From a virus (Duplodnaviria > Caudoviricetes), in IMG/VR virus record IMGVR_UViG_3300027816_002956, positions 1 to 62,651 of that record: a stretch of 62,651 nucleotides of DNA, one strand, 5' to 3'. The notes under the pieces are model-generated. The model worked only from the letters and a program-made list of their open reading frames with translations, was not told the origin of the DNA and searched no databases. The stretch's first letter is position 1; each line of letters starts with the position of its first letter. The translations under genes and the position numbers were made by a program. Positions 17,176 through 46,948 of the stretch are shown piece by piece.

Positions 17176-17178
17176 ATA
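17171..17178 (+). promoter_or_regulatory. T4-type late promoter (AATAAATA) for gp8
   Basis: Lies 5 nt upstream of the gp8 ATG and overlaps the gp7 stop codon. Confidence 0.6.
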
Positions 17179-17183
17179 GACCC

Positions 17184-24500: not shown

Positions 24501-24730
24501 AGATGGAATGTTTTAACCCATCTACAACCGCATCTCTAACAGAAGATGATTTTAGAGAGTTTGAATATAGGCCGTCATTAACTTCTGATTCGGTAACATA
24601 TACTTCAACAAATGGTGGTACATTTGATTCGTTTAAAACATTTGCTATTAAAATTGTTTTAACAACAAGTGATCCATCAATTGTTCCAAAAGTAAAAGAT
24701 TTTCGTGTAATTGCTTTACCATCAGGTTAA
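18533..24730 (+). CDS. Large virion structural protein (VrlC-like / DUF4815-type)
   Basis: PYFDDFDEDKNY.RVLFRPG.SVQARELTQLQ, APGA.RY, LARRTFEESGNY, DFRP, YYL.RID, DPMAQTF and FAIKIVL....P.VKDFRVIAL motifs; follows gp8 as in T4-like cyanophages. Confidence 0.88.
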   Translation: MTTFFNYDPYFDDFDEDKNYMRVLFRPGYSVQARELTQLQTILQNQIEKFGNHIFKNGSPITGGKISLDDRAFYLILNSQYENEDIDVSLFLDKTIISYNSSKTVRAKVIAVDDTTTNPILILKYLSADFFNEEDEIKIFGQNIFAQVKDTSAVGRSYVASIQDGVYYFKGNFVKIVPQFLVLELFYKVGYNATTINKKPTYKVGIEFEENIVDEIDDTTLLDPAQGASNYQAPGATRYEIATRLSKRTLDSADESSFFEVIRLVDGVKTKEIDYPVYSEIEKTLARRTFEESGNYTVDPFVLSLEEEAYDANNTLDSNSFTAVLDPGKAYVGGYEVQTIAPTRIQIPRARQTSNVSDYDLPTNYSSFVVLANTTGTLDISSFPELDIHCTPHTTIDFSSTNAYNSTKIGTLRANMMKYNDASSSVLGSTHTFTVNVFDVSSKPITGTVLTVGSTNTVIELDAATSTGSQANCYANMYFRITDGAGQFLAPILIRESNSISQTVTLSQALPFIPSSNTYSIESDFKVARSISQKSGSSKIFAADVGSDSKDSTTGFSFITEPTKTSLVFDTPFESMKSGSISNFDFYARKLYSDNLSDGTGQMTISTTGTDTFDFAGSPGTLSDNQILNNIICFIRYNSTSNSTSGIAPNTVVSLANNLFTVTAISNTSITVDFDTAGVRADFIITTKVNNAENGTTGAIRGKQLLPLSNTSHEKVPYNLDTAGDSLDFANTGSVINITDGLVFEDIGATFINGANTIAQLKTPGTVVSLQVPDIYEIVRITDSKSTTTNVTTAMLTNDDHDVTSHYEFDNGQRKTHYDHATIKLKRGYSSPTGSSLLIQYKYLKHQAAPSPQNEGLFTVDSYLKTGSNFTYNEMSKFLSNEDGKLISLRSCLDFRPTRTIASNTFFGAVNVDPDRTAELSFEYYLSRIDRLVVKPSKEFSVLSGKSAVSPIPPPVDTNDMLIYTLDIPPYTETVKEIKAEFKNNKRFTMNDIGSFEKRIKGLEYYVALTSLEKNAADSKVLDADGLERSKYGILVDNFTNRDVQSTYGDVGFDNRNLIEEGELKPASLMRTFKMKWSSANSSGSYAAIGVNDQKSLMLNYTTSSFASQPYATKFVPVANALFANFKGTMRLFPEYTGDVDTGHTARVTLNSTQGLDNAFNFINEAFKFISDQNPTWVNDKDNPFAKVVDTKWFETVTTVDNSTVQLGRREFGNLQTTTDRVYISKGAELNMKQISSSTSQVDVGTFVTDLAIQPYLKPRDITFTASSLKPNARYYAFFDGVNIDQYVVVPSKIKVLSGVNSNSVFISGELAIIANNGTELNSFIASYQSGGTSYRMVVVTNSERGSSNVSVVNETGLALTGSKVIWGVDSKSVYGIDSVLEHKSGLTRGITSSTITLAPDAPSVNIAGNTITFVHRSGSSDGYGAVYNVIAYNTSTKVATIQETTSSVEQSSTWVYSIGVNRANKLGQVSGVFYPPAATFRNGERVLRLTESFNNTYDEDAISFAEKSYVSSGIKVNKTNLVNTVYNVDVGVKFVGNASSPLLQSTAVRQEITSTWRVDPMAQTFFIDPEVYPNGLFVENVKLFFANKDEDNIPVSVQIRPTVNGLPSSDFIYPESIVTKYPFEVNTTTSPNFNSSSNYTKFTFASPVFLKAGLYALVVLTDSPSYSLWVAEKGATTTGNQYVSVNPYVGTLYKSQNAMEYVPYLNEDLMFDMDRCIFSSSPATFILENERQSAKYNIDKFRLITRQLETQSDTPFTIDYKFKSKMAGGAKETAYRDLIPFVTYSMGDDDLYTVGNRRKDIENQGDFSVSLTISTTDNAVSPLVSLESIFLNAWENFVDNAEITVDDFNIITPGGGYSNSNVVTITSNTGTGALVYLVTNGAQGNVIGLNVASSGSGYYDDFSISVPGTGFGTITSNAEIVLNSEYDSSGGPCLARYITKPITLADGFDAGDLRVFLSANRRGVSDIHVYYKILSGSDSTTFKDRPYQKMECFNPSTTASLTEDDFREFEYRPSLTSDSVTYTSTNGGTFDSFKTFAIKIVLTTSDPSIVPKVKDFRVIALPSG

Positions 24731-24967: not shown

Positions 24968-27900
24968 ATGACTATTCCTATCATAACAAGAACGAATACC
25001 ATTGATGAATGGCGAATTCAAACAAATTTGTCAGCTATAGAATTAAATAATTTAAAAGCTAACAATTATACAAAATCAAATGGTACTTTAGAATTAGCTA
25101 ACAACTCTGTACTTTTAATAAGTGCAAACGGTACCGCACTCCAAGTTTCAAATAGTGCTTTTATCGGTAGAAATTTAGCAGTAACAAATAACGTTTCTGT
25201 TGGTGCAGTTGGTTCTGGTGTTGGTAATGTCTCTATAGGTAACTCTGTTTTGATTGCTGGACCCGGAGAAGCAGTTAACGTTTCAAATAGTGTTTATGTT
25301 GGTGGCAATAGCAATGTTAGAGGCAACGTGTATGCGAACAATGCAGTTGTCAATAATTCTGTTTATGTTGGTGGTACTGCAAACATTGCTGGTATTGTTA
25401 CACTATCAGGAACAGGTAAAGTATTGGAAGCAAATACTGGAACTGTATATGTTAATAATGCATATCTAACTACTGCAACACTAGATCAAGCAAACGTTGA
25501 ATTGATCTATGCTCTTGAAGCTAAAATTGACAACCTTTCTGATATTGCTTCTGCTGTAATTGGTATTTTGCGTGTAACAACAGGTAATATTTATTATCTA
25601 ACATCGAACACTTTATATGCTAATACTGGAACGATCAGAGATTTTGTTGCAAACAGCACAGGTAATGTAGTAACACTTATATCAAATGTTGCAACAATTA
25701 ATACCGCAACTATTGGTAACTTAAACGCAACAAATGGTACGATTATCAATGGTAATGTAGTAACACTTATATCAAACAATGCTACTTTAAATACATCTAC
25801 TTTAGTTAATATAACAGTAACTAACGCTGCAATTGCAAATGCCGTTATTTCTTCGGCTGCAATTACGACTGGTCAAATTACAAATGGTACAATTACAAAT
25901 GGTACTATCATTAATGGTAATATAGTTACTTTAATTTCAAATAGTGCAACACTTAATAATTCTACATTGTTAAGTTCAAATGTTGTTTCTGCAAATATTA
26001 TAAATGCTAATGTTTCTGGTAATGTAAACTTTACCAATGGATCAACATTAAGATTTAATTCTGGATCAGCAAATGATGCTCTTGTTGTAGATTCAGGTAT
26101 AACTTCTTTACAGACTGTCGTTGTTGAAGGAAACTTAACTGTTGCAGGATCATTTACTCAAACAGGTAATATTAATTTTGAAACAGATAGATTCATTTTC
26201 AATGCAAATACACCTGATAATAAAGATGCTCTTATAATAAACCGTAGAGTTGCTGGAAATAATGCTCAAATTATTTGGAATGAAACAAATGATCGTTGGG
26301 AAGTTTCAACAGGTAATACTTGGACAACAACTTATAAGATTTTAGATGGCGCAGACATTTATACAGGTGTTGATTCTGATAGTACAACACTTGTAGCTTC
26401 TGCGAGTGCTGTTAAATTTGCATATCAAGCTGGTGGTGTTGTAGCCGGTGGCTATGCTAATGCAGCTTATAGACATGCCAATTCTGCATTTGTAAGTCAA
26501 AATACAACAGGTGTTTATGCCAATACTGGATATGCTCATGCAAATTCAGCACATGATGTGGCAAATTCTGCTTTTAGTGGAGTAAGTGGTACACATGCAA
26601 ATGCGGCCTACAGACATGCAAATTCATCTTATGCACATGCAAATACGGCTAATGTATCTGCTCAAGCTGCCTTTGATGCGGCTAACAATGCTTTTGCAGC
26701 TGGTGGTCAATTTGCTTATAGACATGCTAATTCAGCACACGATATTGCAAACTCAGCTTTTGCTGGAACAACAGGTACTCATGCCAACTCAGCATATTTT
26801 ACTGCAAATACCGCTTTAACAAATGCTGAAATTGCTGACCAAAAAGCTGTAGCAGCTAATACTAGAGCCGCTTTAGCTAACGTTCATGCAAATGCCGCAT
26901 ATAATTTTTCAAACACAATAAACAACTTTGCTTTTCATGCTTATACTCATGCTAATGCAGCGTTTGCTCGAGCAAATACAGGAATTACATCTACTGGAGG
27001 TACTATAACAGGTGATTTAACAGTTAATGGAACATTGAATGCTACTGGAGCTTCAATTTTTGCAAATGATATGAAAATTGCAGATGGAATTATAACACTT
27101 AATTCTGACATATTACAAACTGCATCACCAATTGAAAATGCTGGATTAGAAATAGATCGAGGCGCTTCACCTAATGTATTCTTTTTATGGGATGAAACTT
27201 CCGATAGGTGGAGATTTACAAATGATGGTACAAATTATCAAGACGTTGCAGGTCAAACAACAATTAATTCATCTTTAGCCGCATATGTACCTTTAGCAGG
27301 TGGAACCATGACTGGTTTCTTGACTCTGAGTGCAAGTCCATCAAGTGCGATGCATGCTGCTACAAAAGCTTATGTTGATGCTACAATAGGATCAGCAGAC
27401 CTAACAAATTTAAATGCTTCAAATTTAACAAGTGGTACTGTTCCAGTTGCTCGCTTGAGTGGATTATATAATATCAATGTTAATGGTAATGCTAACTATG
27501 CAACAACAGCTGGATCTGCCACAAGTGCAACGACCGCTAGCACCGCTTCCAGTTTAAATGGTGGTAATATTCAAAACTGTACTGGTTTCGCACAAAGTAG
27601 TGGAGCATTTTCAATGACCGGAAGTTCTTTCGGTGTAAATCCCTATGCACAATTTTATGGAGGCATAAGATCTTTTGCTGATATAAATGCATCTGGAGCA
27701 AATATAACAGCAAGTACTTTTTATGGTAATTTAAGTGGAACAGCAACACGAGCTCTTTATGGTGACTTGGCAGAAAAGTATCTAGCTGACGGCGAATACG
27801 ATGAAGGTACCGTAATGGCCATAGGCGGCGAAAAAGAAATAACAGCAGCAACAATTGCCAACTTTAGAGCTCTAGGTGTAGTATCATTGAGACCTGCACA

Positions 27901-28111
27901 CTTAATGAATGCTGATTTGGAAAACGGAACAATTGTTGCTTTAAAAGGTAGAGTTCCTGTAAAAGTTATAGGCAAAGTAATCAAAGGTCAACCTTTAGGA
28001 TTAAGTAACATAGCAGGAGTAGCAAGTGTTAATGAAATGAATTACTTTGCATTATCTCTGATAGATAAGAACGATGATGGTGAAGGTATAGTCGAAGCAG
28101 TTATTTTATAA
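24968..28111 (+). CDS. Tail fibre protein with C-terminal autocleaving chaperone-like domain
   Basis: NTIDEWR N-terminus, beta-rich and Ala/Asn repeats, HAATKAYVD, and C-terminal YGDLAEKY...GVVS..PAHLMN...VALKGRVPVKV (peptidase G2/IMC-like). Confidence 0.78.
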   Translation: MTIPIITRTNTIDEWRIQTNLSAIELNNLKANNYTKSNGTLELANNSVLLISANGTALQVSNSAFIGRNLAVTNNVSVGAVGSGVGNVSIGNSVLIAGPGEAVNVSNSVYVGGNSNVRGNVYANNAVVNNSVYVGGTANIAGIVTLSGTGKVLEANTGTVYVNNAYLTTATLDQANVELIYALEAKIDNLSDIASAVIGILRVTTGNIYYLTSNTLYANTGTIRDFVANSTGNVVTLISNVATINTATIGNLNATNGTIINGNVVTLISNNATLNTSTLVNITVTNAAIANAVISSAAITTGQITNGTITNGTIINGNIVTLISNSATLNNSTLLSSNVVSANIINANVSGNVNFTNGSTLRFNSGSANDALVVDSGITSLQTVVVEGNLTVAGSFTQTGNINFETDRFIFNANTPDNKDALIINRRVAGNNAQIIWNETNDRWEVSTGNTWTTTYKILDGADIYTGVDSDSTTLVASASAVKFAYQAGGVVAGGYANAAYRHANSAFVSQNTTGVYANTGYAHANSAHDVANSAFSGVSGTHANAAYRHANSSYAHANTANVSAQAAFDAANNAFAAGGQFAYRHANSAHDIANSAFAGTTGTHANSAYFTANTALTNAEIADQKAVAANTRAALANVHANAAYNFSNTINNFAFHAYTHANAAFARANTGITSTGGTITGDLTVNGTLNATGASIFANDMKIADGIITLNSDILQTASPIENAGLEIDRGASPNVFFLWDETSDRWRFTNDGTNYQDVAGQTTINSSLAAYVPLAGGTMTGFLTLSASPSSAMHAATKAYVDATIGSADLTNLNASNLTSGTVPVARLSGLYNINVNGNANYATTAGSATSATTASTASSLNGGNIQNCTGFAQSSGAFSMTGSSFGVNPYAQFYGGIRSFADINASGANITASTFYGNLSGTATRALYGDLAEKYLADGEYDEGTVMAIGGEKEITAATIANFRALGVVSLRPAHLMNADLENGTIVALKGRVPVKVIGKVIKGQPLGLSNIAGVASVNEMNYFALSLIDKNDDGEGIVEAVIL

Positions 28112-28130
28112 TCTAGGAAAAAAATAAATT

Positions 28131-29555
28131 ATGAATCAGCCTTTAAATTTTTATGCAAAAAAATCTATGAAAGGAAATCCTCATGTTTTTGATGATTACT
28201 TTCAATTGAGTGCTTTAACAATTACTGTAACGAGCGCATGTAATTTACATTGCGATTATTGTTTTGAAGAACATGAAAGTAGGTTAATAAAACCCGATGA
28301 AGTAGTTGACATTATTGATGTTGCATATAAGAATTTTAGAAAAAATAATCCTACTGGTTCAATGCCATTATCTTTTTTTGGTGGTGAACCTTTTATCGCA
28401 TGGAAAACTATTCAAAGATGTATTGAACACGCTAAAGAAAAAGGTTATGATCTTTCTGTTGGCATAACAACAAACTTAACTTTGTTGACTGATGAACAAA
28501 TGGAGTTCATTGATGAGAATGATATTGGTTTGTTAGTTTCAATAGACGGCACCAAAGAAGTTCATGATAGATTACGTGATAATTCTTATGATGTTGTTTC
28601 TAAAAATGTCAAAAAACTAATAGACAATGGCATGAAAAGGTTAATAGAAGCTCGGATGACAGTTCCGCCAGGTGAATTTCATAATCTTTTAGCTGGAGTT
28701 CAAAACATTTTTTCTTTAGGTGTTGATAACATTGCTCCTGTTCCTGTTACCGATCAAGTTTGGACTAAAGATCAAGTTAAATTATTAGAAAATGAACTTG
28801 ATAAATTGTATGAATGGACAATTTCAATATACGAAGATCCAAACAATAAAAGAAACATTAGTGTGAAAATGATTGATGATTATTTGTTTCAATGCATACA
28901 TGACGAATTTGATATGAAAGGTACACCTTGTAGTTTTGGAAGTAATAAATGGCTGAGTATAGGTCCTAGTGGTGAAATGTATCCATGTCACCAAATACAT
29001 ACACGAAAAGATCAACAAGAATTGTTTTACATGGGAAATATTTTAAAAGGTGAAATACTTCCACATAGAATTTTAGGTCAGGTTTTGCCACATTCATGGA
29101 AAAAAGCTGACGATCCAGAATATACATGCGACACATGTGAGGCATATAATATTTGTAGAGGTTCTTGCCCAAGTGAAAACTATGATTTAAATAAAGATTA
29201 TTTAAAAACTCCAGATGAATGGTGTGATTGGGTTAGAATGTCAAAACGAATCACGAAAAAATACCAGAATCAACTTTTAAATAGTAAAAATTTGAGAAAT
29301 AAAAGATTAAATTCTATAAAACTAAATTTAGAGATTATGGAAATGATTGATAGGGTGAGAGAATATAATGTATACTCCCGAGAATTTCCTCTTGTTGTTC
29401 TTGATTTATATGAAAAAGTTTTAAGTTGTGAACATAATTTGTTACCTGGTTTTTCTGACTTATCAAAAAATAAATTAGCAAAATTTAGAGAACAACTAAC
29501 ACAAATTAGAGATGAATTAATTAAAAAAGAATCAATGCAAAAGGAAACAGTTTAA
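28131..29555 (+). CDS. Radical SAM/SPASM enzyme 1 (putative peptide/protein maturase)
   Basis: CNLHCDYC, FFGGEP, TTN and VSIDG motifs; SPASM cysteines C(SFG)...YPCH...CDTCEAYNICRGSCP...C. Confidence 0.93.
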   Translation: MNQPLNFYAKKSMKGNPHVFDDYFQLSALTITVTSACNLHCDYCFEEHESRLIKPDEVVDIIDVAYKNFRKNNPTGSMPLSFFGGEPFIAWKTIQRCIEHAKEKGYDLSVGITTNLTLLTDEQMEFIDENDIGLLVSIDGTKEVHDRLRDNSYDVVSKNVKKLIDNGMKRLIEARMTVPPGEFHNLLAGVQNIFSLGVDNIAPVPVTDQVWTKDQVKLLENELDKLYEWTISIYEDPNNKRNISVKMIDDYLFQCIHDEFDMKGTPCSFGSNKWLSIGPSGEMYPCHQIHTRKDQQELFYMGNILKGEILPHRILGQVLPHSWKKADDPEYTCDTCEAYNICRGSCPSENYDLNKDYLKTPDEWCDWVRMSKRITKKYQNQLLNSKNLRNKRLNSIKLNLEIMEMIDRVREYNVYSREFPLVVLDLYEKVLSCEHNLLPGFSDLSKNKLAKFREQLTQIRDELIKKESMQKETV

Positions 29556-30154
29556 TGGGTACCTCTGTACATCAATCACAAAATACGATCATCGAAAACG
29601 ATGATTATAATCCAAATACTGAAAATGATGCTTGGAATATTCGAAGAAGATATGTTGGATTAGCTGCCATTTGGAGTAATCCAAACGCTGGAGATACTGG
29701 TTGTGCTAGAACGCAAACATATAGTACGTCCATAAGAGTTAGAAAATTTTCAGATGCTGGAAGACCTTATAGTGATGGTACTATTCTTGGTCTTACTGTA
29801 AGACAGCCTGTAGACAATCAAGAAATTTTAGCTACAGATTTAGATAATGCAAGACGAATTATCAATGAAGGTGTTGCAGCTGTAAATCAATCTTTTTTAA
29901 ATTCAACAACTGGATTTATTAATCCAGCTTCTGGGTATGCAAGTCGAGATCAAGAAATTTTAGCTTCACACATCAATAATTTAATTAATACTATTATAAT
30001 CACAGAAACTAAGTTAGACATATACAATTCATATTATGATGGAGCTGACTTATGTCAAAGAAGTTGCCAAATACAATGTCAGACAGCATGCCAAACAAGT
30101 TGTCAAGGATGTAATACTTCACAATGCCACAATCAAAAATGTGGAGTGCATTGA
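29555..30154 (+). CDS. Cys-rich putative radical SAM substrate with SCIFF/CxxxC-repeat-like C-terminus
   Basis: Ends CQRSCQIQCQTACQTSCQGCNTSQCHNQKCGVH (8 Cys in 33 aa); start overlaps the rSAM1 stop (TAATG) and the stop lies 1 nt before rSAM2. Confidence 0.85.
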   Translation: MGTSVHQSQNTIIENDDYNPNTENDAWNIRRRYVGLAAIWSNPNAGDTGCARTQTYSTSIRVRKFSDAGRPYSDGTILGLTVRQPVDNQEILATDLDNARRIINEGVAAVNQSFLNSTTGFINPASGYASRDQEILASHINNLINTIIITETKLDIYNSYYDGADLCQRSCQIQCQTACQTSCQGCNTSQCHNQKCGVH

Positions 30155-30155
30155 T

Positions 30156-31481
30156 ATGTTTGATGTAATTTCCAAAGTAACATTAAAACTCAGCACATAT
30201 TGTAATTTAGCTTGTGAGTATTGTCATCAAATGACTGATGATAAAAAACATCATGTTACTTTTGAAAAATATAAAGAAATGTATGACTTTTTACTAAAGA
30301 CAAATTTGTCTGATGTTGTTGAAGTAACTTTAACTGGTGGAGAAATTTCCCTTTTAGAAGAAGAATATGAAACAGCTGTAAAATGGTTCAGAAAGATTGA
30401 AAGACAGAGAGATGTAAAGTTTACTTTTGCTGTTGTTTCAAATGGTACAAATATAAAACAATTATTTAAATTAATAAAACAAGGTGATTTAAATCCTAAA
30501 AGAACAACAATTAGTTGGGATGGATTATACACCATGTCAAAGAGTCGTAAAAGTAAATTTGAAAAATTCAATGATGATTTCTTTAAAAATGTTGTTACTG
30601 AAATTGGCCAAAGTCCATGGGCAAAGCAATTAAACATTACACATGCAATAACACCTACTACCATCCCTTATTTACACGATAGTTTAGTTTTTGCTTTAGA
30701 TGCTGGTGTAAAAAATTTTGGTTTTTATTATATACATGAAGCCGATTATAGCGACAAAGAATTTTTAAAAATTTATGATGAACAAGTTACAAAATTAGGT
30801 GAAGAATTTGTAAAACGATATGAAGATTTGTCAACAAGATTTGTTTATTATAATTGGCAATTATTATATGCTAAAGAAAATTTGCCAACAGATAACAAAG
30901 AATTAATGAGAGCCACAACTCTTTGTCACAAATTAGGAAGAACGGTGCATTTTGACCCATTAGGTGACATTTATGGTTGTATTTATTTTGGAGACCATAG
31001 AGCTCTAAAACTAGGTGATTTGGAAAATGGTAATATAGATAAAACGAAATATCAAAAATTTAGTGATCAATACTTCGAAATGCCAGGTTGCAAATTAGAT
31101 AGTTGTGGCAATTCACATTGTTTTGAATGTCCAGCAAGTAACTATGTACATAAAGGAAAAATGGCGAATAGATTTAGTAACACATGCGAAATGTTATCTA
31201 TTGAAAAAAGAATTTACTATGATTTAAAACCTAAACTTAAAATAGATGAATTTGATAAAGCTTTTTATTGGATGGAAGAAGATCATTTAGAACAAAAAAA
31301 CTATGATGATAAGTATGAAACATATTTAAATGATATAGTAGGTATACCTTTAACTGAGGAAGCTTATGTTGAAGATGATGAGTACTCAAATAGATTAAGT
31401 CCAACGTATAAAAATGTTGTTACTTGGATGAAAAAAACTCCTAAGAAAAAAGAATTTACTCTAAATTTAGAAACCATATGA
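30156..31481 (+). CDS. Radical SAM/SPASM enzyme 2
   Basis: CNLACEYC, TGGEI, VSNG and ISWDG motifs; divergent SPASM CHKLG...YGC...CKLDSCGNSHCFECP...C. Start moved to ATG 30156, with GGAG RBS at 30143. Confidence 0.9.
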   Translation: MFDVISKVTLKLSTYCNLACEYCHQMTDDKKHHVTFEKYKEMYDFLLKTNLSDVVEVTLTGGEISLLEEEYETAVKWFRKIERQRDVKFTFAVVSNGTNIKQLFKLIKQGDLNPKRTTISWDGLYTMSKSRKSKFEKFNDDFFKNVVTEIGQSPWAKQLNITHAITPTTIPYLHDSLVFALDAGVKNFGFYYIHEADYSDKEFLKIYDEQVTKLGEEFVKRYEDLSTRFVYYNWQLLYAKENLPTDNKELMRATTLCHKLGRTVHFDPLGDIYGCIYFGDHRALKLGDLENGNIDKTKYQKFSDQYFEMPGCKLDSCGNSHCFECPASNYVHKGKMANRFSNTCEMLSIEKRIYYDLKPKLKIDEFDKAFYWMEEDHLEQKNYDDKYETYLNDIVGIPLTEEAYVEDDEYSNRLSPTYKNVVTWMKKTPKKKEFTLNLETI

Positions 31482-32767
31482 AAAAGAAGTTTTCAAAAAT
31501 AGGTTCTAATATCAATCATGTTTATCTTATGATGACAGAGGCTTGTCCTTTAGATTGTGAATACTGTTACATAAAAGATAGAAAAACAAAAAACAATGTA
31601 AGTGATGAAGATATTGATACTTTAATAAATGCTTTTGAGTATCATACTCCTAGAATAATTTATTTTGGTGGAGAACCTTTACTCGAAGTTGAACATATAA
31701 AAAGAGTTACTGAAAGATGGAAACATAGGTGTCAGTTTCAAGTTATAACTTCTGGATTAGTAAACTTCGATAAATTTGTTGATGAAGTTTATTTACCTAA
31801 TAAAGAAAAATTTGATATTCAAATATCTTGGGATGGTTTCGAAAATGACAACCGAGTTTTAAGAAATGGTAAAAATAAACAAGATAGAGTTATGGCCACC
31901 ATATTAAGTACCTTAGAAATGGGTATACCTCTACAAGTAAGAAGTGTTATAAATGACGAAAATGTTGATAATCTCGTTAAGATTTATGAGACCTATAGAT
32001 ATTTAAAACTTCAGTATCCACATTTGACGGGTGATATAACTATTGCTCATCAAAAACATTTCAAAGATGATTTTCCAGAAAAGTTTAGGCAACAATTTAA
32101 AACAACACTTGAAATAATTGAAGATGATATTAATAATGGTATAGAGCCTTATTTTCCATTAGAGTACATGAAAAAAATGACTAGTGCGTTAAATGGAAGA
32201 CATGTTAGTTCGTGTGATGCTGGAAATTATTTGGTTTTAAAACCAAGTGGCGCACTATATCCTTGTACAATATTAAGTCAACAAAATGATGATGTTGATT
32301 TTATCATGGGTCATATTTCTGATAGAGACTTAGATTATGATATGATGGATAAAATGCGAAAGCCAAGTGAAGCTGAAATTTGCAAAACTTGTGGAGTTAG
32401 ATCTGTATGTGATGGTGGTTGTCGATATGAAAGAGTTGCAAATTATGGTAAAGATTGGATGGGAAAAGTTTGTGGTTTTACCTGTGGTGTTTCTGAAGCC
32501 TGGTTTCATGAAACAAAAAATTGGGTTTTAAACATGAATGAAAATGTTTATGAAAAAGTAATTCAGAGATTGGTATTATTTAATAATTGGGTTATTCATT
32601 ATGATACTGGTCACCATGACGAAGCAAAAAAACACCAGACTTTTGATAGAGAACAATTGAAATTAGGTAAAAGATTAGATTTTTATAATTTTTATAAAGA
32701 CACTACTGAGAAAAAGATTATACCTATTTTGCCATTGAGTAAAGAAAAAAATGTCTTTGTCACCTAA
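31478..32767 (+). CDS. Radical SAM/SPASM enzyme 3
   Basis: CPLDCEYC, YFGGEP and ISWDG motifs; SPASM SCDAG...YPC...CKTCGVRSVCDGGC...C. Confidence 0.92.
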   Translation: MKKKFSKIGSNINHVYLMMTEACPLDCEYCYIKDRKTKNNVSDEDIDTLINAFEYHTPRIIYFGGEPLLEVEHIKRVTERWKHRCQFQVITSGLVNFDKFVDEVYLPNKEKFDIQISWDGFENDNRVLRNGKNKQDRVMATILSTLEMGIPLQVRSVINDENVDNLVKIYETYRYLKLQYPHLTGDITIAHQKHFKDDFPEKFRQQFKTTLEIIEDDINNGIEPYFPLEYMKKMTSALNGRHVSSCDAGNYLVLKPSGALYPCTILSQQNDDVDFIMGHISDRDLDYDMMDKMRKPSEAEICKTCGVRSVCDGGCRYERVANYGKDWMGKVCGFTCGVSEAWFHETKNWVLNMNENVYEKVIQRLVLFNNWVIHYDTGHHDEAKKHQTFDREQLKLGKRLDFYNFYKDTTEKKIIPILPLSKEKNVFVT

Positions 32768-33983
32768 TTTTAAAAAATCTGTTGATGGTATCGCTAAAGT
32801 AGGTAGACAAAATAAAAGATTTGAAATATTTTTAAATCTTACCTATAAATGCCCTTTGAGATGTACTTATTGTTATGTGGATTACAATAGGGCTCCTCCA
32901 ATGACACAAGAGCAGGTTGATTATGTCATTGAAAAACTTCTCATTGAACCTAAAAAAACTGATATAAAGCTTGTCACCTTTTTTGGAGGTGAACCTGCTT
33001 TAGAGATGGACATCATAGAAAATACCTTAGACAAATATTCTCATGTTGAGAAAATAAAAAATGTTCATTTTGGAATCATAACAAGTTTTTCTGTCAATCA
33101 AGATAGACTTTTAAAGTTACAAAAAAAATATCCAAAATTAGAAATAGCTATAAGTTTTGATGTTGATATGAAAGAAAGAGTCTTTATCAATAAAAAACAA
33201 TTTGATTTATTAGGTGTGGCTAAGAAAAAATTTGATATTGATTTAGAAAAGATGAAAGAAAATAAAAATAATATTTTCTTTAATAAAGTTATTACAGGGC
33301 AAGAAACAGATTTATTTGGTGATTTGAAATGGCTTCACGATACTTATAGGGACTATAAATTATTTTATAGTTTATCGTTTACGAAAACGCCTAAGTTTCC
33401 TTTTCATCCAGAAGGAAGAATAGAGGAAGGTTGGTATAAATATTTAAACTATATTTTTTCTAAGTATTTAACTAATGAAGTAGTATTTTTACCTATGTTA
33501 GTTTTACAATACTTAGATCGTTATTGGAAACAAAAAAAGAACACAGCCACTTCTGGTTGTGGTTTGGGTGGTGAATATTTTATTGATAGTAATGGGACAG
33601 TTAGTCCATGCAGTATAAGTCATCATAGAACAGATTTAATGCTTTATCATGAAGGAAAGTTTCTCGACAATAATGAACACTTTCAAGAATTAGAAGATAG
33701 TTATTGGAACAATCCTACATGTCAGAAGTGTGAATATAAAGGTTTTTGTCCTGGCGGTTGCATGGTTTTTAGGTATACTGAAAATAACGATTACAATATA
33801 CCAAATGAGGGCCAATGTATTTTGATGGAAGAAATTTTTAAGGCCTATGACAGATTTTTAAATGAACGTACAGAAAAAGAAATAACTGAGTTAACTTTTA
33901 TTCTAGCAAAAGATTTACAGAAATATCATTCGTATTGTCATCATGATGATGAACATATAGATTTACAAGCAATTTATAACTAA
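32751..33983 (+). CDS. Radical SAM/SPASM enzyme 4
   Basis: CPLRCTYC, FFGGEP and ISFD motifs; SPASM GCGLG...SPC...CQKCEYKGFCPGGC...C. Confidence 0.92.
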   Translation: MSLSPNFKKSVDGIAKVGRQNKRFEIFLNLTYKCPLRCTYCYVDYNRAPPMTQEQVDYVIEKLLIEPKKTDIKLVTFFGGEPALEMDIIENTLDKYSHVEKIKNVHFGIITSFSVNQDRLLKLQKKYPKLEIAISFDVDMKERVFINKKQFDLLGVAKKKFDIDLEKMKENKNNIFFNKVITGQETDLFGDLKWLHDTYRDYKLFYSLSFTKTPKFPFHPEGRIEEGWYKYLNYIFSKYLTNEVVFLPMLVLQYLDRYWKQKKNTATSGCGLGGEYFIDSNGTVSPCSISHHRTDLMLYHEGKFLDNNEHFQELEDSYWNNPTCQKCEYKGFCPGGCMVFRYTENNDYNIPNEGQCILMEEIFKAYDRFLNERTEKEITELTFILAKDLQKYHSYCHHDDEHIDLQAIYN

Positions 33984-33994
33984 GTGAGAACATT

Positions 33995-35146
33995 ATGCAC
34001 ATTTTTTTACCTGAATTAATATACAATGAAATAAAAGAAAATGATAAATTTAAATCTATTTACAATTCTTTAAATGATTTTTTTGATACAAAAACTAAGT
34101 GTTTAATTGATTACAATAATGAAATCAATAATGATGATTATTATAAAGATTTGAATGATTTTTTAAAGAAAAATTTATCAGAAAAAAATAATAAAATATG
34201 GAATTGTTTTAAAGTCTGTGTAGATTTTGATGAAAAAGATAGTAATAAAGATTGGGAAAAAATTAGAGAAGTAATTGATTCGTGCAAAAAAGACGATGAT
34301 TTAGAAGTAAAATTGTATGCGTACTATATGGAAATGGCAAATACTGCTGATCATGAATCTGAAAAATGGATAGAAAATGTTGAAGAATCTTTAAAATTGT
34401 TCGATCAAAATAAAGATAAAGTTTTTGATACAAGATTGTATACAAAATTTTATTGGGATGTACACGAAAAAAATAATTTTTATTTAAAAAATAAAAAAGA
34501 AAAAGATTTAATTGATGAATTTAAAAATTATCAAAAATTAGATTTAGAAACTAAAGATTTTATATTTTCAAAACATAATGATACATACACTAAAGATATA
34601 ATTAACCATAAAACAATATATACTGCAATTCAATTCTGGCATGCAAATTTAAATTCGGCGGAAAACGATCAAAAAAGTGCTGAATATGTTCTAAAAAAAT
34701 TAGATGATAAAATTGCAAATTTAGATTTCAAATATAATTCTTTTAACATGCATTTAATGGAATGGCTATGGTTAAATTTTAAATGGCATTTAGATAGAGA
34801 TAATATTCTAGCGGTTGATGTGGTAGAAATTATGATACAAATTGTTGAAGAAACATTAAAAAATAAAAATTACATGATAAGATCTTTACGTCATCATAAT
34901 TTTAATTATATTTCTAATTTTTTAATTTTAATGCAAAATTTAAATGAAGTTGAAAAAATCTTTGAAAAAGTGTTAGTAAACTATGAAAGAAAATTAAACA
35001 AATTAAATTGGACAGAAAAAGAATATAAAGTTATTATTGATAATGATCTATCAATTACTAATAACTGGTGGAACGAAAGAAGTAGAACACTCAACAATTA
35101 CAAAGAAAATATGATTTCTTCTATAAAAAATAAATTTTTAGGATAA
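33995..35146 (+). CDS. Hypothetical helical protein, paralog A (rSAM cluster accessory)
   Basis: Long AT-rich ORF; starts MHIFLPELIY and shares the DFKYxxFN motif with the next gene. Confidence 0.75.
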   Translation: MHIFLPELIYNEIKENDKFKSIYNSLNDFFDTKTKCLIDYNNEINNDDYYKDLNDFLKKNLSEKNNKIWNCFKVCVDFDEKDSNKDWEKIREVIDSCKKDDDLEVKLYAYYMEMANTADHESEKWIENVEESLKLFDQNKDKVFDTRLYTKFYWDVHEKNNFYLKNKKEKDLIDEFKNYQKLDLETKDFIFSKHNDTYTKDIINHKTIYTAIQFWHANLNSAENDQKSAEYVLKKLDDKIANLDFKYNSFNMHLMEWLWLNFKWHLDRDNILAVDVVEIMIQIVEETLKNKNYMIRSLRHHNFNYISNFLILMQNLNEVEKIFEKVLVNYERKLNKLNWTEKEYKVIIDNDLSITNNWWNERSRTLNNYKENMISSIKNKFLG

Positions 35147-35149
35147 AAA

Positions 35150-36355
35150 ATGTTAGTTTGGCTACCAGAAAATATCTATCAATTAGTAAAAAATAATTCT
35201 GAATATATTTCAATAATTGAAGAATTAGAAAAAGTTTCTTTTGACGGAGAACTTTCTTCTACTGTACCTGAAAATACTCCAGAAACATGGCCTATCTATA
35301 GAAAATTATATTCATTTTTAAATTCTGTTGAGAAAAATGAGTACGAACAGATTACTTGGGAGTTGAATAAAATTCTATTTGATAAGTTGTTTCTCGAAAT
35401 AGATAATGAAAATTTTTCATATACAGACAAATTATTATCTTTAAAAGATACCTTAGTAAACATAAAAAATAAAATAGATTCTTTAGATGATTCTGTTATA
35501 AAAAACCTTCTAAAAATTAATTTTTTACAATATGAAATTTTAGCTTTGTCTGAAAATAATAGTTTTTTTTCTGCTGATTTGATTGCAAAAAGGCAAGAAT
35601 TGTTATCAACATTTGATTCGATTAAAAAAGAAAATGTGACTTATGATTCTGTAATAGATTATTTTGAAAATTATTTTAATCTATACATGGTAAATTTAAT
35701 AAAAAATGAAAGTTTGGTGGTAAAATCTTTTAATGATTTACAATTAAATTTTAATAAATTTAGAATGGATCTTGATTTAAAAATTGATGAAGTAAAAAAT
35801 TCATCAATTGAACACAACTACTTTAAACTTTTTGATGTTCTAAATTATTTAAAATTGTACTTTATAAACTTTTATTATGAAAGTTTTATACCAATGGTTA
35901 ATTTAACTGATGATGAAAAATTGATAATTGACAAAAATATTGTAAAATATGCAAAGAGTGTAGATTTTAAATACAAAAATTTCAATATTATTACCTTACA
36001 TTTTTATTGGATAAGAATGAAAATGTTTTTTTCATTTAAAGACTATGATCAGTTTTTAAAAGTTTTTAATGAAATGTGTCTATATTTAAAGTTAAATTTA
36101 GATAATAATAAAAAAGATGTGATTAAATCTATAATTTTTCATACGCAATCTGACCACATAGATTTTTTAATTTTGATCAAAGTTTTATTAGAATTAGATG
36201 AGGAAATGAGTAAATTTTTTAAACAAGAAAAACAATTAGAAAATTTAAATTTATCTGAAAAAGATATTACTTTGATAAATGCAAATAATGATAACTATAA
36301 AAATTCATCTTACTTTTTTGATATTAATTTCATAAAGAATAGGTTCTATGGATAA
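35150..36355 (+). CDS. Hypothetical helical protein, paralog B (rSAM cluster accessory)
   Basis: Starts [10 protein letters not shown], contains DFKYKNFN and ends IKNRFYG (paralog A ends IKNKFLG); overlaps erpA. Confidence 0.75.
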
Positions 36356-36683
36356 TTCTCAAATTACGATAACAGATAATGCTGCCTTTAAAATTGCAGA
36401 AATTATAAAAGATTCTGAAGCTGAAGGTCAATTTATTAGAACTTTTGTTCAAGGAGGCGGTTGTTCTGGTTTTCAGTATGGTTTTACTTTTGAAAATGAA
36501 ATAAATGATGATGATTTTGTGGTTGAAAAAAATGACATAAAATTACTCGTTGATAGTATGAGTATGACATATTTAACTGGTGCAAAAATAGATTACAAAG
36601 AAGATTTAAATGGATCACAATTTGTCATTGAAAATCCTAACGCTCAGTCCACATGCGGTTGTGGGAGTAGTTTCTCAGTTTAA
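36348..36683 (+). CDS. erpA: A-type iron-sulfur cluster carrier (ErpA/IscA/HesB family)
   Basis: [29 protein letters not shown] and [14 protein letters not shown]; all three Cys ligands are present. Confidence 0.95.
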
Positions 36684-36686
36684 ATT

Positions 36687-36736
36687 GCCAGTTTGACTAA
36701 ATAGACGATAAATGTCTTTTAGGAGTCTCAATTGGC
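36687..36736 (+). promoter_or_regulatory. Late promoter-like ACTAAATA (36696-36703) within a hairpin that pairs with the AGGAG RBS and TTG start of the next gene
   Basis: GCCAGTT.GACT (36687-36698) pairs with AGTC..AATTGGC (36724-36736); there is also an inner AGAC/GTCT stem. Confidence 0.55.
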
Positions 36737-37064
36737 CGAATTTGTCGAACTAACCCTCGAACAGGGTGCAACTTTCAATACAGTAATTAATGTAAATGAT
36801 GGTACCGGCTCTCCTCAAAATCTAGTTGGATACACGGCACGCTCAATGATGCGCCGGTCCTACTATACTTCCTCATCCAAAGAATTTCAAGTTTCTGTTT
36901 CAACACCAGCCTTAGGTGAAATAACCATGTCTATGTCTGCGGCCAATACTGCAAATTTGACTCCAGGAAGATATGTTTATGATGTGGAGATAGATGATGG
37001 TGCAGGTGAAGTTACAAGAATTTTTGAAGGTATTATTACCGTTTTGCCTAACGTAACGAGATAA
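36732..37064 (+). CDS. Small beta-sandwich virion-associated protein
   Basis: TTG start with AGGAG RBS; EQGATF...GYTARSMMRRSY...GRYVYDVEI...RIFEG.ITV.P.VTR, a family I recognise from tail regions of T4-like phages. Confidence 0.72.
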   Translation: MAEFVELTLEQGATFNTVINVNDGTGSPQNLVGYTARSMMRRSYYTSSSKEFQVSVSTPALGEITMSMSAANTANLTPGRYVYDVEIDDGAGEVTRIFEGIITVLPNVTR

Positions 37065-37066
37065 AA

Positions 37067-37267
37067 ATGGCTATCACAGTACAAGTAAAACCTAGAAAAA
37101 CTACTATATCTTCTGTAACTGTTGCAAGAACAGCTAACCTCAATCTTGCACAAATTAATAATGTTGATATTATTACGCCTGCAAATAATCAAGTTTTGAT
37201 GTATGAGACTGGTACTGAACGTTGGGTAAATAAAGAAATTCCAACAATTAGTGGCGGTACATTCTAA
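37067..37267 (+). CDS. Small hypothetical fibre-associated protein
   Basis: Tightly coupled 66-aa ORF ending ISGGTF, with an L....NV......NNQVL.Y.....W.N motif. Confidence 0.65.
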   Translation: MAITVQVKPRKTTISSVTVARTANLNLAQINNVDIITPANNQVLMYETGTERWVNKEIPTISGGTF

Positions 37268-40200
37268 TGACAATAATTCAGATAAAGTATTCAACAGCGA
37301 ATACTGAACCAGCTAATGGACAACTATCTGCTGGAGAATTAGCTTACTCTGAAGTATCTAAAAAATTATTTATTGGTAATGATTTTGGTACTGCCAATGT
37401 TATTGGTGGCCAAAAATATATTGACCTTCTTGAATCAAATACTTCTTTTGCATCACCTGGTGCAATTGTAATTCGTGATTCTCAAGGTTCTTTTTTTGGA
37501 AATGTAATTACAGCCAATTCTTTTGTTGGTAATCTTGCTGGAAATTTAGATGGTAATGCTGCAACAGCTTCACGACTAGCAAATAACTTTACAATTACAT
37601 TGACTGGTAATGCAAACGGTAATGTAAGTCTCGATGGTTCTTCAAATGTAACTTTAAATGTTACACTTGTAAATACATCGGTTACAAGTGGTTCATACGG
37701 CAATACAAGATTTATTCCTACATTTACTGTTGGATCAGATGGTCGTATTACAGGCGTAACAAATGTCGCTATAGACTTTCCAGATTCAGCCGACTTTTCT
37801 CAAGATTCTTATAATCAAGCAAACTCTGCATATGCACATGCTAATGCAGCTTATCAAACTGCTAACACAGCAATTTACTCTAATGCACATTCTAATGCAT
37901 CATTTAATGTAGCAAATTTAGCTTTAACTACTGCAAATTCAGCATCTTCATATGCAAATAGTGGTTTTGCGGTAGCTAATGTTGCAAATATTAACGCAAT
38001 TTCGGCATCATCTTATGCCAATTCAGCATATCAAACAGCCAATTCTGCAAGTTCGTATGCAAATAGTGCCTTTATGGCCGCAAATACAGGATTATTATCA
38101 TTCAATACTGCAAATGCGGCTTTTAATACTGCAAATACAGCATTAACTACTTCTATTAATACTGCTTTATTGTTAGTAGAAATATTTGCTAATGTCACTT
38201 CGACCGAAGAATCTATTGCAACAGCTGGCAGATATGCTAATTCAGCTTATCGACATGCAAATGCTTCATTTAATACGGCAAATACTAAGTTTAATACTTC
38301 TGGTGGTACAATTTCAGGTGATGTTAATGTTACTGGTAATCTTACAGTTACAGGAAATGTAACTTATGTAGCAACAAATCAATTGAATTTAGGTGATGCA
38401 GTTATAACTTTAAATGCAGATTTAGGACAAGCTGCTTTACCAACAGAAGATGCTGGTATAGAAATAGAACGTGGTAGGTATCAAAATTCTTCCATACTTT
38501 GGAACGAAACTTTAGACCGGTGGCAGTTTACTGATAATGTTTCAACAAGTAACATAGGTTCGGCTGCGGCTGAAGTCTATGCTAATGCGGCTTATGATGC
38601 CGCCAATGCTGCATATGCTTTTGCTGGTCAAGCGACTATTGCTGTTTCAGGTTCAGCTTTAGCTGCTAACGCTGCGGGGTCATATGCTAATGCGGCATTT
38701 TTAAGAGCCAACGCTGCATTTAGTGGTACAACTGGAACACATTCTAATTCTGCATATGCTCATGCTAATGCAGCTTTTGCGGCGGCAAATTCTGCAACAC
38801 CTCAAGCCGTTCAATCAGCTTTTGATAAAGCCAATTCTGCTTTTGATGCTGCAAATAATGCTTTTATTGCAGGTGGTCAAATTGCAGGATCATATGCTAA
38901 CTCAGCATACATTCAAGCCAATGCTGCTTTTAATCGTGCTAATTCTGCCAATAACTTAGTATTAGAAACCAGAACACATGCTAATTCTGCATTTAGTGAA
39001 GCAAATAATGCTACGTTGATTGGTCTTGCTGCTTTTGCTCTTGCAAATAGTATTCAGTTTTCTCAAGGTACTGAAATTGCAACATATGCTTGGGTCAATA
39101 GTAATGCAGCTTATAATCATGCAAACGGAGCTTTTGTACAAGCTAATACCGCTAATGTACAATCTGTAGTATCGGGAATATATGCTAATGCCGCATTTGC
39201 TTTAGCTAATACAAAGTTTAATAACTCTGGTGGTACGATCTCTGGTGATGTGGTTGTTTCAGGTAATTTACGTGTAGATGGAGATAGAGCACAATTTTTC
39301 GTTTCTTCTATTTCCATTGAAGATAACTTAATTGATATTGCAACAGATCAAACTGGCGCACCATCATTAAATTCAGGCATTCGAGTTATTCGTGGTGATG
39401 AATCGCCAGTTTTATTACGTTGGAATGAATCCAACGATTATTGGCAGTTTACAAATGATGGTATATCATATTCAAATATAGGTTCTTATGCAGCCGAATC
39501 GTATGCCAACTCTGCATTTGGTGTTGCAAATACCGCCAATGCACATTCAATCTCTGCATTTAGTTTAGCAAATACAGTAAATGCAATCGCACAGGCCGCA
39601 TATGATACTGCTAACAACGCTGGTAGTAGTGCAATCTTACAAGCAGCTTTTAATACTGCTAACTCTGCTGGTTCATATGCAAATGGAGCTTTTGGTGCCG
39701 CAAATTCTGCTGGATCATTTGCAAACTCCGCACTAGGTGCCGCAACTACCGCAGATCAACGTGCTGTAACTGCTGGTGTATTTGCTAATGCTGCATTTGA
39801 AATTGCTAATGTTTCAAACGAAAAAGCTGCATCAGGTTATAGACACGCAAACGCATCTTTCAATTGGGCAAATTCTGCTTACAATGCAGCCAATTCTAAA
39901 CTTGATTTAAGTGGTGGTACTCTGACAGGACCATTGACTGTACAGGGTGGTGTGACCATCGTTGGTGGTTTACTGTATGCAAATTCAAGTACTGTAATTC
40001 TTGCAGACAATATCATAACTCTTAACGCTGCAATTGATCAGGCATCAGCACCTGCATTTAATGCTGGTATTGAAGTTGATCGTGGTACTTCAGATAATGT
40101 TGCTTTTATTTGGAATGAATCTGATGATCATTGGCAGTTTACAAATGATGGTACAAATTATATAAATGTCGCTTCTGAGGCTGCTGAATTCTATGCTAAC

Positions 40201-41019: not shown

Positions 41020-41036
41020 AATAACGAGAGAAAAAT

Positions 41037-42959: not shown

Positions 42960-42988
42960 CGGACTAATTGAAGGGTGTGTGTTAGATA

Positions 42989-45004: not shown

Positions 45005-45007
45005 ATA
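45000..45007 (+). promoter_or_regulatory. T4-type late promoter (perfect TATAAATA)
   Basis: Lies 5 nt upstream of the ATG at 45013. Confidence 0.75.
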
Positions 45008-45012
45008 GAACT

Positions 45013-46941: not shown

Positions 46942-46944
46942 ATA
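46937..46944 (+). promoter_or_regulatory. Possible late promoter variant (GCTAAATA)
   Basis: Lies 4 nt upstream of the ATG at 46949, the same geometry as the other late sites. Confidence 0.45.
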
Positions 46945-46948
46945 AAAA

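Follow-up and report, generated by a model that had tools for sequence, protein, structure and literature searches.

Results

A phage cassette that links radical SAM enzymes to a cysteine tag

We analysed a 62,651-base stretch of viral DNA (IMG/VR virus record IMGVR_UViG_3300027816_002956, judged ~15% complete; hereafter, the window), in which positions 28131-36683 hold eight open reading frames (ORFs) on the + strand. They encode four radical S-adenosylmethionine (SAM) enzymes (rSAM1 to rSAM4), a cysteine-rich protein, two helical proteins and an ErpA-type Fe-S carrier. Together they probably form a cassette, carried by the phage, for the maturation of a protein and not of a small peptide: the last 33 residues of the cysteine-rich protein, an eight-Cys tag, would be stapled, and the product would remain full-length. 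The genes and motifs that are present, the existence of the tag family and the strict linkage of enzymes and tag are directly established. From them we infer that the tag is the substrate, that the chemistry is thioether formation, that the helical proteins have a part in it, and that the product serves in the virion, the last being the weakest step, which we put forward tentatively.

The eight genes are tightly coupled, with junctions that are either overlaps of 1-17 nucleotides (nt) or gaps of 1-11 nt. An earlier reading of this DNA, made from the letters alone (the sequence-only reading), had listed the same genes in the same order and at the same coordinates, and only the start of rSAM2 had to be corrected. 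The ORF of rSAM2 is open from 30036, and the real start is most likely 30156, as judged from an alignment with orthologs (1-435 to 1-434), so that rSAM2 would begin 1 nt past the stop of the Cys-rich gene, without overlap.

The linkage between enzymes and tag was found from both directions. Twelve IMG/VR loci were retrieved with an alignment of rSAM1 only. Ten of them contain rSAM1 orthologs (33-41% identity), and in 10/10 an ORF with a cysteine tail lies directly after rSAM1, followed by two or three further radical SAM genes. Six loci were retrieved through the specific tag, five from metagenomes and one (L020) from a set of 185,579 species genomes, and in 6/6 a radical SAM gene adjoins the tag. 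The 16 linked loci include near-identical copies and represent about eight distinct lineages. L020 is a 283-kb contig of a bin named 'uncultured bacterium', carries the full cassette, and is taken here as phage-like. Since the adjacency is strict and does not depend on context, the tag is the most likely substrate, in line with the proposal of the sequence-only reading that a RiPP-like cassette (RiPP, a peptide made on ribosomes and modified after translation) acts on the Cys-rich protein. That reading had also named radical SAM homologs occurring without the Cys-rich gene as evidence to the contrary, and among the orthologs no such case was seen.

The cassette is conserved in phage-like contigs of every collection searched. 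Its core order is rSAM1, tagged protein, rSAM2, rSAM3, sometimes rSAM4, and then a helical protein. Four enzymes are present in the window, L001, L011-L014 and L020, and three in L005-L010 and L015; the cassettes of L003 and L004 end at contig ends. Because the identical gene order recurs in other phage contigs, the cassette is not a chance arrangement. Scans for promoters and terminators and for the T4 late-promoter motif gave counts that were at or below chance or uninformative.

The pairing of Cys-repeat proteins with radical SAM enzymes is wider than the phage tag, as seen in two loci from metagenome-assembled genomes (MAGs). In a Bathyarchaeota MAG (L021, 6612-9597), a 529-residue protein with a CXXX-repeat C-terminus is encoded directly upstream of a single radical SAM gene, and in a Clostridiales MAG (L022, 5700-10184) a 799-residue protein with a CQ-repeat stretch is encoded near a single radical SAM gene. 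Two viral loci contain distant rSAM1 matches (L016 and L017, 25-26% identity). On the viral contig L016 (6202-10734), a 1079-residue protein ends in ~45 CXXX units (CQxx/CExx) directly before a single PapB-like radical SAM gene and looks like a far longer relative of the eight-Cys tag; beside the L017 enzyme no Cys-rich neighbour was seen.

Other searches returned less. Against 50,697 phage records, megablast of the cassette gave no match, tblastn of the tagged protein gave none either (the low-complexity filter of BLAST may hide the tag), and tblastn of rSAM1 gave distant matches only (21-30% identity). Among the latter, the Phass-1 enzyme is split by a recoded stop and has no Cys-rich partner that we could see, and another is an unannotated faecal phage contig. 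In Phage Phass-1 (L018, 5953-7146), the 48-residue 'hypothetical protein' annotated before a radical SAM gene is in fact that enzyme's N-terminus with CxxxCxxC, cut by a stop under translation table 11; the taxonomy of the record places it in a 'code 15' clade. IMG/VR searches with the tagged protein, with its 30-sequence alignment, with a degenerate DNA pattern for QCHNQKCG and with the single rSAM1 protein yielded nothing.

A near-invariant C-terminal tag on variable proteins

The tagged protein (199 residues; 29555-30154, + strand), the candidate substrate, has 31 metagenome homologs and no match in Pfam, NCBIfam or PHROG. In the 30-sequence alignment, the first ~165 residues are variable (mean column identity 49% overall) and the last 33 are almost invariant. 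The tag (residues 167-199; 30053-30151, + strand), CQRSCQIQCQTACQTSCQGCNTSQCHNQKCGVH, is the presumed modification site. Its consensus in the alignment is CxRSCQxxCQTACQTSCQGCNTSQCHNQKCGxH, with invariant columns at C167, C171, C175, C179, C183, C186, C191 and C196, and at Q172, Q176, Q180, Q184, Q190 and Q194. The cysteines are arranged as four consecutive CxxxC units followed by CxxC, CxxxxC and CxxxxC, and the tag thus contains consecutive C-x-x-x units.

The last 55 residues in the window and in nine loci were made into a profile, which was run against 1.84 billion representative proteins and matched 129 clusters at E ≤1e-3 and 72 at E ≤1e-10. We rescanned 125 proteins locally (123 of the 129 clusters plus two locus proteins) and found the tag in 124, within six residues of the C-terminus in 114 of the 124. 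These 114 proteins are 71-950 residues long (median 275). The consensus of the family consists of an aromatic-Asp motif and then CxxxCQxxCQxxCQxxCQxCxxxxCH(N/D)QxCG, and a conserved helix precedes the tag. The eight cysteines and four CQ pairs are almost invariant throughout the family.

The remainder of the proteins is exchangeable. Among a selected 62 longer members, Pfam domains are Gly_rich_2 (in 7), CBM_5_12 (in 2), F5/8 type C (in 2) and F5_F8_type_C_2 (in one more), and the PHROG labels, which are automatic annotations and may overlap, are tail protein (9), tail fibre assembly (6), minor tail (3) and tail fibre (2). The SCIFF precursor family PF13165 touches one of the 62 (E 9e-4). For the proteins from the loci themselves, CBM_5_12 is found in L002 and a weak, sub-cut-off F5/8 type C match in L005. 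A hidden Markov model (HMM) of the N-terminal 62 alignment columns was significant for short members only among the tag proteins, and a common N-terminal recognition helix in the long forms is unsupported. As judged from these alignments, the Cys stretch is a portable, near-invariant C-terminal tag on otherwise variable, modular proteins.

The AlphaFold2 model of the 199-residue protein (predicted local distance difference test score, pLDDT, 69.6) is a helical bundle with long loops, in which residues 21-41, 93-113 and 137-162 form helices. A fold search with this model in the PDB and BFVD gave nothing at E ≤0.001, and the top BFVD match is probably from the protein's own family.

The radical SAM enzymes are old paralogs related to peptide and protein maturases

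All four enzymes contain CxxxCxxC and GGE and pass the Pfam Radical_SAM cut-off of 29.5 bits: rSAM1 (474 residues; 28131-29555) with 63.9 bits, rSAM2 (441 residues from the inferred start; 30156-31481) with 38.2 bits, rSAM3 (429 residues; 31478-32767) with 48.1 bits and rSAM4 (410 residues; 32751-33983) with 42.6 bits, all on the + strand. The sequence-only reading had assigned SPASM cysteines to each of them, which holds in canonical form for rSAM1 and rSAM4, with rSAM2 being atypical and rSAM3 partial. In rSAM1, cysteines 37/41/44 and 267/286/333/336/342/346/365 are conserved in 14/14 sequences and include a canonical seven-Cys SPASM set. Seven auxiliary cysteines of rSAM2 (257/275/312/317/322/325/344) are likewise kept in 14/14, with the non-canonical spacing Cx4Cx4Cx2C. 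Across orthologs, rSAM3 has five invariant and two partly conserved SPASM cysteines, and the canonical seven are found in 6/6 sequences of rSAM4. The SPASM model TIGR04085 (cut-off 27 bits) is passed by rSAM3 (48.8 bits) and rSAM4 (43.9 bits); the Pfam SPASM model matches rSAM1, rSAM3 and rSAM4 below its cut-off and does not match rSAM2.

The top NCBIfam model for all four is the PapB family ranthipeptide maturase NF047865 (180.5, 96.3, 106.7 and 87.6 bits for rSAM1 to rSAM4; cut-off 340). QhpD-type, SCIFF, CXXX-repeat and other peptide- or protein-modifying families come next, in varying order, and orthologs in a distant locus show the same ranking pattern. The other scores of rSAM1 are 141.4 bits for the QhpD-type model TIGR03906 (cut-off 453), 124.6 for the SCIFF maturase TIGR03974 (cut-off 425), 84.3 for TIGR04115 (E 1e-23; cut-off 350) and 57.6 for TIGR04463 (cut-off 525). 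The CXXX repeat maturase model TIGR04119 (cut-off 150) gives 25.4 bits (E 7.9e-6) with rSAM2 of the window and 36.3 bits with that of L006, and E values from 8e-6 to 4e-9 with rSAM2 orthologs. The closest PDB structure to rSAM1 is 5wgg/5why (E 6e-25), an entry named as CteB in the accessible part of PMC13692751. A role of the enzymes in making a cofactor or small molecule, a kinship that the sequence-only reading had listed as evidence against itself, was rejected, as every best match is to a maturase of peptides or proteins.

Matches to families that bear an N-terminal RiPP recognition element (RRE) begin at about model position 80-100 and query residue ~25; for instance, the SCIFF maturase match of rSAM1 begins at model position 96 and query residue 26. 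As these matches start past the RRE domain, the enzymes are without it. rSAM1, which has no N-terminal RRE, has a conserved C-terminal extension of ~110 residues.

A maximum-likelihood tree of 37 sequences resolves four well-supported orthogroups with parallel internal branching, which indicates that the paralogs are old and have been inherited together as a cassette. rSAM3 and rSAM4 are sister paralogs (clade support 96/91). Orthologs of rSAM3 are present in every cassette with three or four enzymes, and those of rSAM4 are, beyond the window, confined to L001, L011-L014 and L020. The earlier description of four divergent maturases is borne out by these separately conserved orthogroups, whose best scores are against thioether-forming maturases.

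Relation to known systems

The PapB/freyrasin (NF047865) and CteB/SCIFF (TIGR03974) systems also combine radical SAM enzymes that have SPASM auxiliary clusters with Cys-rich ribosomal substrates, and PapB is the best family match for all four phage enzymes. However, the phage enzymes reach 88-181 bits against cut-offs of 340 and 425 and are without an N-terminal RRE. The substrates of PapB and CteB are short peptides, whereas the phage candidate is a protein of 199 (and up to 950) residues. PapB substrates have Cys-X3-Asp/Glu motifs (PMC9413430; PMC10739248, accessible parts) and SCIFF has its own motif; the phage tag has Gln and Asn instead. One enzyme serves each substrate in those systems, and the phage cassette has three or four. 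Assignment to SCIFF/CteB is further disfavoured by the score of rSAM1 (124.6 bits vs 425), the absent N-terminal domain and the lack of a Pfam match for the window substrate.

Among the nearest known systems are also QhpD-QhpC, which functions in quinohemoprotein amine dehydrogenase maturation, and CrpC-CrpA, in which a SPASM radical SAM enzyme makes thioether links in a protein that stays a protein. In a 2026 report, a Cys-rich protein of 28.8 kDa with C-X-X-Q/D motifs acquires ranthionine links through the action of a SPASM enzyme (PMC13692751, accessible part). As described there, the Cys motifs of CrpA are repeated and come with Gln/Asp acceptors, and CrpA is encoded in a small cluster with a helper-like paralog, which resembles the phage cassette; by analogy, Gln and Asn are suggested as thioether acceptors in the tag. 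Among the matches of rSAM1, the QhpD-type model is second only to PapB, but the score is below the cut-off (141.4 vs 453 bits), as is that of TIGR04463 (57.6 vs 525). The QhpD and CrpC systems are cellular and use a single enzyme, whereas the phage cassette has three or four and a helical protein, and, unlike in QhpC and CrpA, the tag of the phage system is short and constant and is found at the C-terminus of variable proteins.

The CXXX-repeat system (TIGR04115/TIGR04119) shares consecutive CxxxC units in the substrate, and rSAM1 and rSAM2 match its models, with scores far below the cut-offs (84 vs 350 and 25-36 vs 150 bits). Its repeats are open-ended, whereas the phage tag is fixed at eight cysteines with a CH(N/D)QxCG ending. 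Our literature search found no paper on this system.

Similar gene sets have been reported in phages. T4-like marine viral genomes contain as many as 12 radical SAM genes along with one for an A-type carrier, and the carrier was suggested to serve virally encoded Fe-S proteins (PMC5332604); in pelagimyophages, radical SAM cassettes are found in the host-recognition (tail-fibre) cluster (PMC7029224); and a cyanophage has a single, different radical SAM gene (PMC12801897; all three as far as their accessible parts go). The phages of the first two reports resemble the window in being T4-like, aquatic and low in G+C, with multiple radical SAM genes and a carrier or a fibre-region cassette. They belong to marine and pelagic groups, whereas the window is freshwater-labelled, and the likeness drawn here is by gene content. 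The cassette layout has thus been noticed before in T4-like and pelagic phages and not characterised. The sequence-only reading had considered it to be without a characterised precedent, which still stands as to characterisation, although cassettes and carriers of this kind were already in print. No substrate, tag family or RiPP-like reading is named in the accessible parts of PMC5332604 and PMC7029224, and our literature search found no description of the tag, or of the cassette as a protein-maturation system.

A full-length product or a released peptide

A recognition part followed by a Cys-rich C-terminal core resembles the leader and core of a RiPP, and the enzymes resemble ranthipeptide and SCIFF maturases. 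A BFVD homolog is auto-named 'Six-cysteine peptide SCIFF', and in a clade of jumbo phages (see below) the cassette lies among DNA-metabolism genes, not structural ones. The ~165-residue N-terminal part could therefore be a leader, with the 33-residue modified tag being cleaved off by a host or unlinked protease to act as a free antibiotic, signal or lysis helper. We consider such a released RiPP unlikely. Pfam and NCBIfam models revealed neither a peptidase nor an exporter within the cassette, as the sequence-only reading had already remarked. The pattern of conservation is reversed, with a near-invariant 'core' and a hypervariable 'leader' in proteins of 71 to 950 residues, and some 'leaders' contain folded carbohydrate-binding or tail-like domains, which would be needless in a disposable leader.

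Since a constant 'core' with a variable, modular remainder is the reverse of what is found in ordinary RiPPs, we favour a whole protein with a constant stapled module, and the earlier preference for a modified protein over a released antibiotic gains weight from the same pattern. That the tag is the substrate also fits the enzymes' relation to thioether-forming maturases, the invariance of the Cys-Gln pattern and the lack of a peptidase or exporter, and thioether rings are the most likely product.

The helical protein is a conserved partner

Helical protein 1 (383 residues; 33995-35146, + strand) follows rSAM4 in the window. Its AlphaFold2 model is all-alpha (pLDDT 90.8) and bears a weak resemblance to tetratricopeptide repeat (TPR) proteins, with an Atlas structure match at a template modelling (TM) score of 0.59. 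TPR proteins are also on top of a PDB fold search, where the matches are weak (E ≥0.05, TM ≤0.35), and there is no match to Pfam or NCBIfam models, TPR models included. Nine close homologs were found, and the protein is homologous to the ORF of ~370-380 residues that follows the last radical SAM gene of distant cassettes (hhalign probability 96.5%, E 1e-9). With a family HMM, a helical ORF was identified after the last radical SAM gene in 13/13 loci that reach past it; five of these had served to build the model, so that their matches are expected, and L020 (E 4e-38) and a fragment in L005 (E 3e-7) are independent. These matches indicate that the helical protein is a conserved fifth component of the cassette, one that the sequence-only reading had left unweighed.

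Helical protein 2 (401 residues; 35150-36355, + strand) is a distant paralog of the first. The relation had been noted earlier and stands, albeit weakly: BLASTP aligns the two at 27% identity over 159 residues (E 2e-5), and the family HMM matches residues 1-385 (E 3.9e-13). L001 also has two helical copies, the second of them truncated where the contig ends.

Records from 43 contigs, of up to 169,051 bases, contain a protein identical to helical protein 1. The phage genome is probably well above the 62.6 kb of the window, and the phage has been seen repeatedly.

ErpA is an optional addition

The last gene of the window cassette (111 residues; 36348-36683, + strand) shares its first 8 nt with the end of the gene for helical protein 2. 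It encodes an A-type Fe-S carrier that passes the ErpA equivalog cut-off (NF010147, 165.1 vs 117 bits), in agreement with the earlier assignment, and matches Pfam Fe-S_biosyn with 77.2 bits. The cysteine ligands C39, C103 and C105 are present in the translation, one central and two in a CGC near the C-terminus. However, the view that ErpA is an integral part of the system is weakened. Not one of the 11 other cassettes with a downstream flank (L006-L015 and L020) has an ErpA homolog, and eight further viral contigs have homologs (45-64% identity) and no cassette in the flanks retrieved. The gene is rare in the phage record collection, where eleven records match, several of them bacterial-looking by name. 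On these comparisons ErpA is an optional add-on of the window lineage, not a conserved or defining part of the cassette.

Three viral contigs (L024, 8898-10324; L025, 9645-10321; L026, 9102-10178) contain a second, more distant A-type carrier paralog within ~1 kb of the ErpA homolog, with 31-36% identity to ErpA of the window.

The adjacent carrier gene in the window phage, together with eight invariant cysteines and one His that is invariant in both the 30-sequence alignment and the tag profile, could also mean that the tag is a metal or Fe-S module, either a structural site or an electron donor. ErpA might then load the tag, and the enzymes would act elsewhere, on fibres or a host molecule. 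Metal binding was also raised by the authors for CrpA (PMC13692751, accessible part). We regard this reading as improbable, since ErpA is missing from all 11 other cassettes, and the Cys-repeat proteins directly beside (L016, L021) or near (L022) a single radical SAM gene fit enzyme-substrate pairs. The usual spacing of ferredoxin cysteines is unlike CxxxC with an invariant Gln after each Cys, which counts against it as well. Neighbouring fibre proteins as the general substrate were rejected, because enzymes and tag stay adjacent also in loci that have no fibre genes close by.

Genomic context

The window encodes a T4-like baseplate and a long series of fibre and host-recognition genes. Baseplate wedge genes, identified by PHROG matches (12296-18524), are followed by a giant DUF4815 protein (18533-24730). 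A fibre-like protein of 1047 residues with repetitive sequence (24968-28111, + strand) ends 19 nt before rSAM1, and its last 125 residues share 49.6% identity with a collagen-repeat protein upstream of the L001 cassette. Downstream, on the same strand, 110- and 66-residue proteins precede a 1250-residue fibre-like protein (together 36732-41019, PHROG matches); the 110-residue protein matches phrog_1084 and phrog_3304 ('L-shaped tail fiber protein assembly'), and the 1250-residue protein has a weak match to a tail-fibre PHROG. Overall, the domain matches in the flanks of the cassette (baseplate wedge PHROGs, DUF4815, Mtd_N, GP38 and Peptidase_S74) are to tail and host-recognition genes. The G+C content is 0.29-0.31 across the enzymes and 0.21 across the two helical-protein genes, vs 0.38-0.40 in the surrounding fibre genes (28000-36000 vs 38000-50000). 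The lower value fits a cassette gained or swapped independently of the fibre genes.

Several other proteins of the window carry recognisable domains. At 7741-11583, a 921-residue fibre protein with Peptidase_S74 (endosialidase chaperone) is followed by a 358-residue protein with a GP38 adhesin-like domain. A 642-residue protein (45013-46941) opens with an Mtd_N domain (54.7 bits), the N-terminal domain of the major tropism determinant, Mtd. Mtd is the target of a diversity-generating retroelement in another phage. RCC1-repeat beta-propeller domains are found in two fibre-region proteins (50496-52223 and 57293-59005), one of which also has a He_PIG immunoglobulin-like domain. The sequencing runs with the whole window in contigs are labelled freshwater or, in four cases, fungus metagenome; all carry a flag as possible sources, and the labels are not evidence of habitat. 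One RNA-labelled run contains 0.44 of the sampled words of the window, which is no evidence of expression.

The tail-module location given in the sequence-only reading applies to the window and to L001, the only loci with the cassette behind a fibre gene, and not to a syntenic jumbo-phage clade of eight loci (L002, L006-L010, L015 and L020), where the cassette follows ThyX and shares common upstream genes. In five of these (L006-L010), an NAD-DNA ligase gene is downstream, and in L002 the major capsid gene is next to the cassette on the opposite strand. The cassette neighbours in L011-L014 are of unknown family. The cassette is thus found in at least three different genomic contexts.

With such varied surroundings, the fibre-gene position could be an accident of insertion, and the modified protein could act inside the cell, against host defence or for takeover, without a role in the virion or in host recognition. 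Pelagimyophage cassettes are similarly described as additions between otherwise similar host-recognition clusters (PMC7029224, accessible part). We nevertheless give this reading only a slim chance, because the CBM_5_12, F5/8 type C and PHROG-tail domains point to carbohydrate or surface binding, although they are not decisive.

Discussion

A model for maturation of the tagged protein

We propose that the gene directly behind rSAM1 supplies the substrate, with the last 33 residues of its product as the part that would be modified. rSAM1-3, plus rSAM4 in some lineages, would each hold auxiliary clusters besides the [4Fe-4S] cluster that cleaves SAM, and act on the tag in the reducing cytoplasm. 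Most probably, several thioether rings would arise from bonds between Cys sulfurs and carbon atoms of nearby residues, either the invariant Gln/Asn or others, and the different enzymes may make different links. Without an RRE, the helical-repeat protein or proteins, or the C-terminal extensions of the enzymes, may hold or present the substrate. In the window phage, ErpA would be co-translated with the cassette and probably aids the loading of up to about twelve clusters over the four enzymes. The product would remain full-length, with the stapled tag constant and the remainder exchangeable; in certain members that remainder is carbohydrate-binding or resembles tail proteins.

A role in host recognition or adhesion is plausible in view of the carbohydrate-binding and tail-like inserts and of the position of the cassette between fibre genes in the window. 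Incorporation into the virion is plausible too, and the modified protein would most likely take part in host recognition or adhesion, possibly while attached to the virion. We speculate that the stapled tag is a rigid polycyclic, non-reducible plug that anchors exchangeable lectin-like receptor-binding proteins on the virion, or a constant warhead on variable targeting domains, colicin-like. Phages would then employ RiPP-type radical chemistry to make a component of their infection machinery, and we hold the idea with clearly less confidence than the maturation cassette itself.

Several observations weigh against this model. All enzyme scores are far under the NCBIfam cut-off of every named family, and the reaction type is, for that reason, a guess, with the chemistry suggested by kinship. 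The tag of the window protein has no Asp or Glu, which serve as acceptors for PapB; its corresponding invariant residues are Gln and Asn. In the AlphaFold2 model the tag is disordered (pLDDT <50), and the model thus gives no structural information on it. In L002, the tagged protein is adjoined by rSAM1 alone, and three or four enzymes are thus not always adjacent. ErpA is absent from the other cassettes, as described above. At least 43 of the 62 longer tag members have a variable part without a Pfam domain, and the 'tail' labels are those of automatic annotation. Finally, because the cassette follows ThyX in other phages, its position does not show a virion role, and the fibre-gene neighbourhood loses some of the value as a pointer to a virion protein that the sequence-only reading had given it.

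Significance

RiPP-like radical SAM chemistry on a whole protein is on record in very few cases (QhpC, and CrpA in 2026), and we found none in a virus. What sets the present cassette apart is that it is phage-borne, has several enzymes and a conserved helical partner, and comes with an eight-Cys C-terminal tag that is portable among modular proteins. As the tag is short and near-invariant and occurs on otherwise unrelated proteins, both the chemistry and the biology are directly testable by co-expression. If the model is true, enzymatic thioether stapling of a virion or host-recognition protein would be seen here for the first time, and the cassette would be a modular 'tag and staple' system for protein engineering, which could yield a portable tag-and-enzyme set for protein cross-linking. 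If the tag is stapled, this would explain the abundance of radical SAM enzymes and Fe-S carriers in some aquatic T4-like phages, which has been left open since 2017, and could reveal a new route by which phages build stable extracellular protein modules inside a reducing cell.

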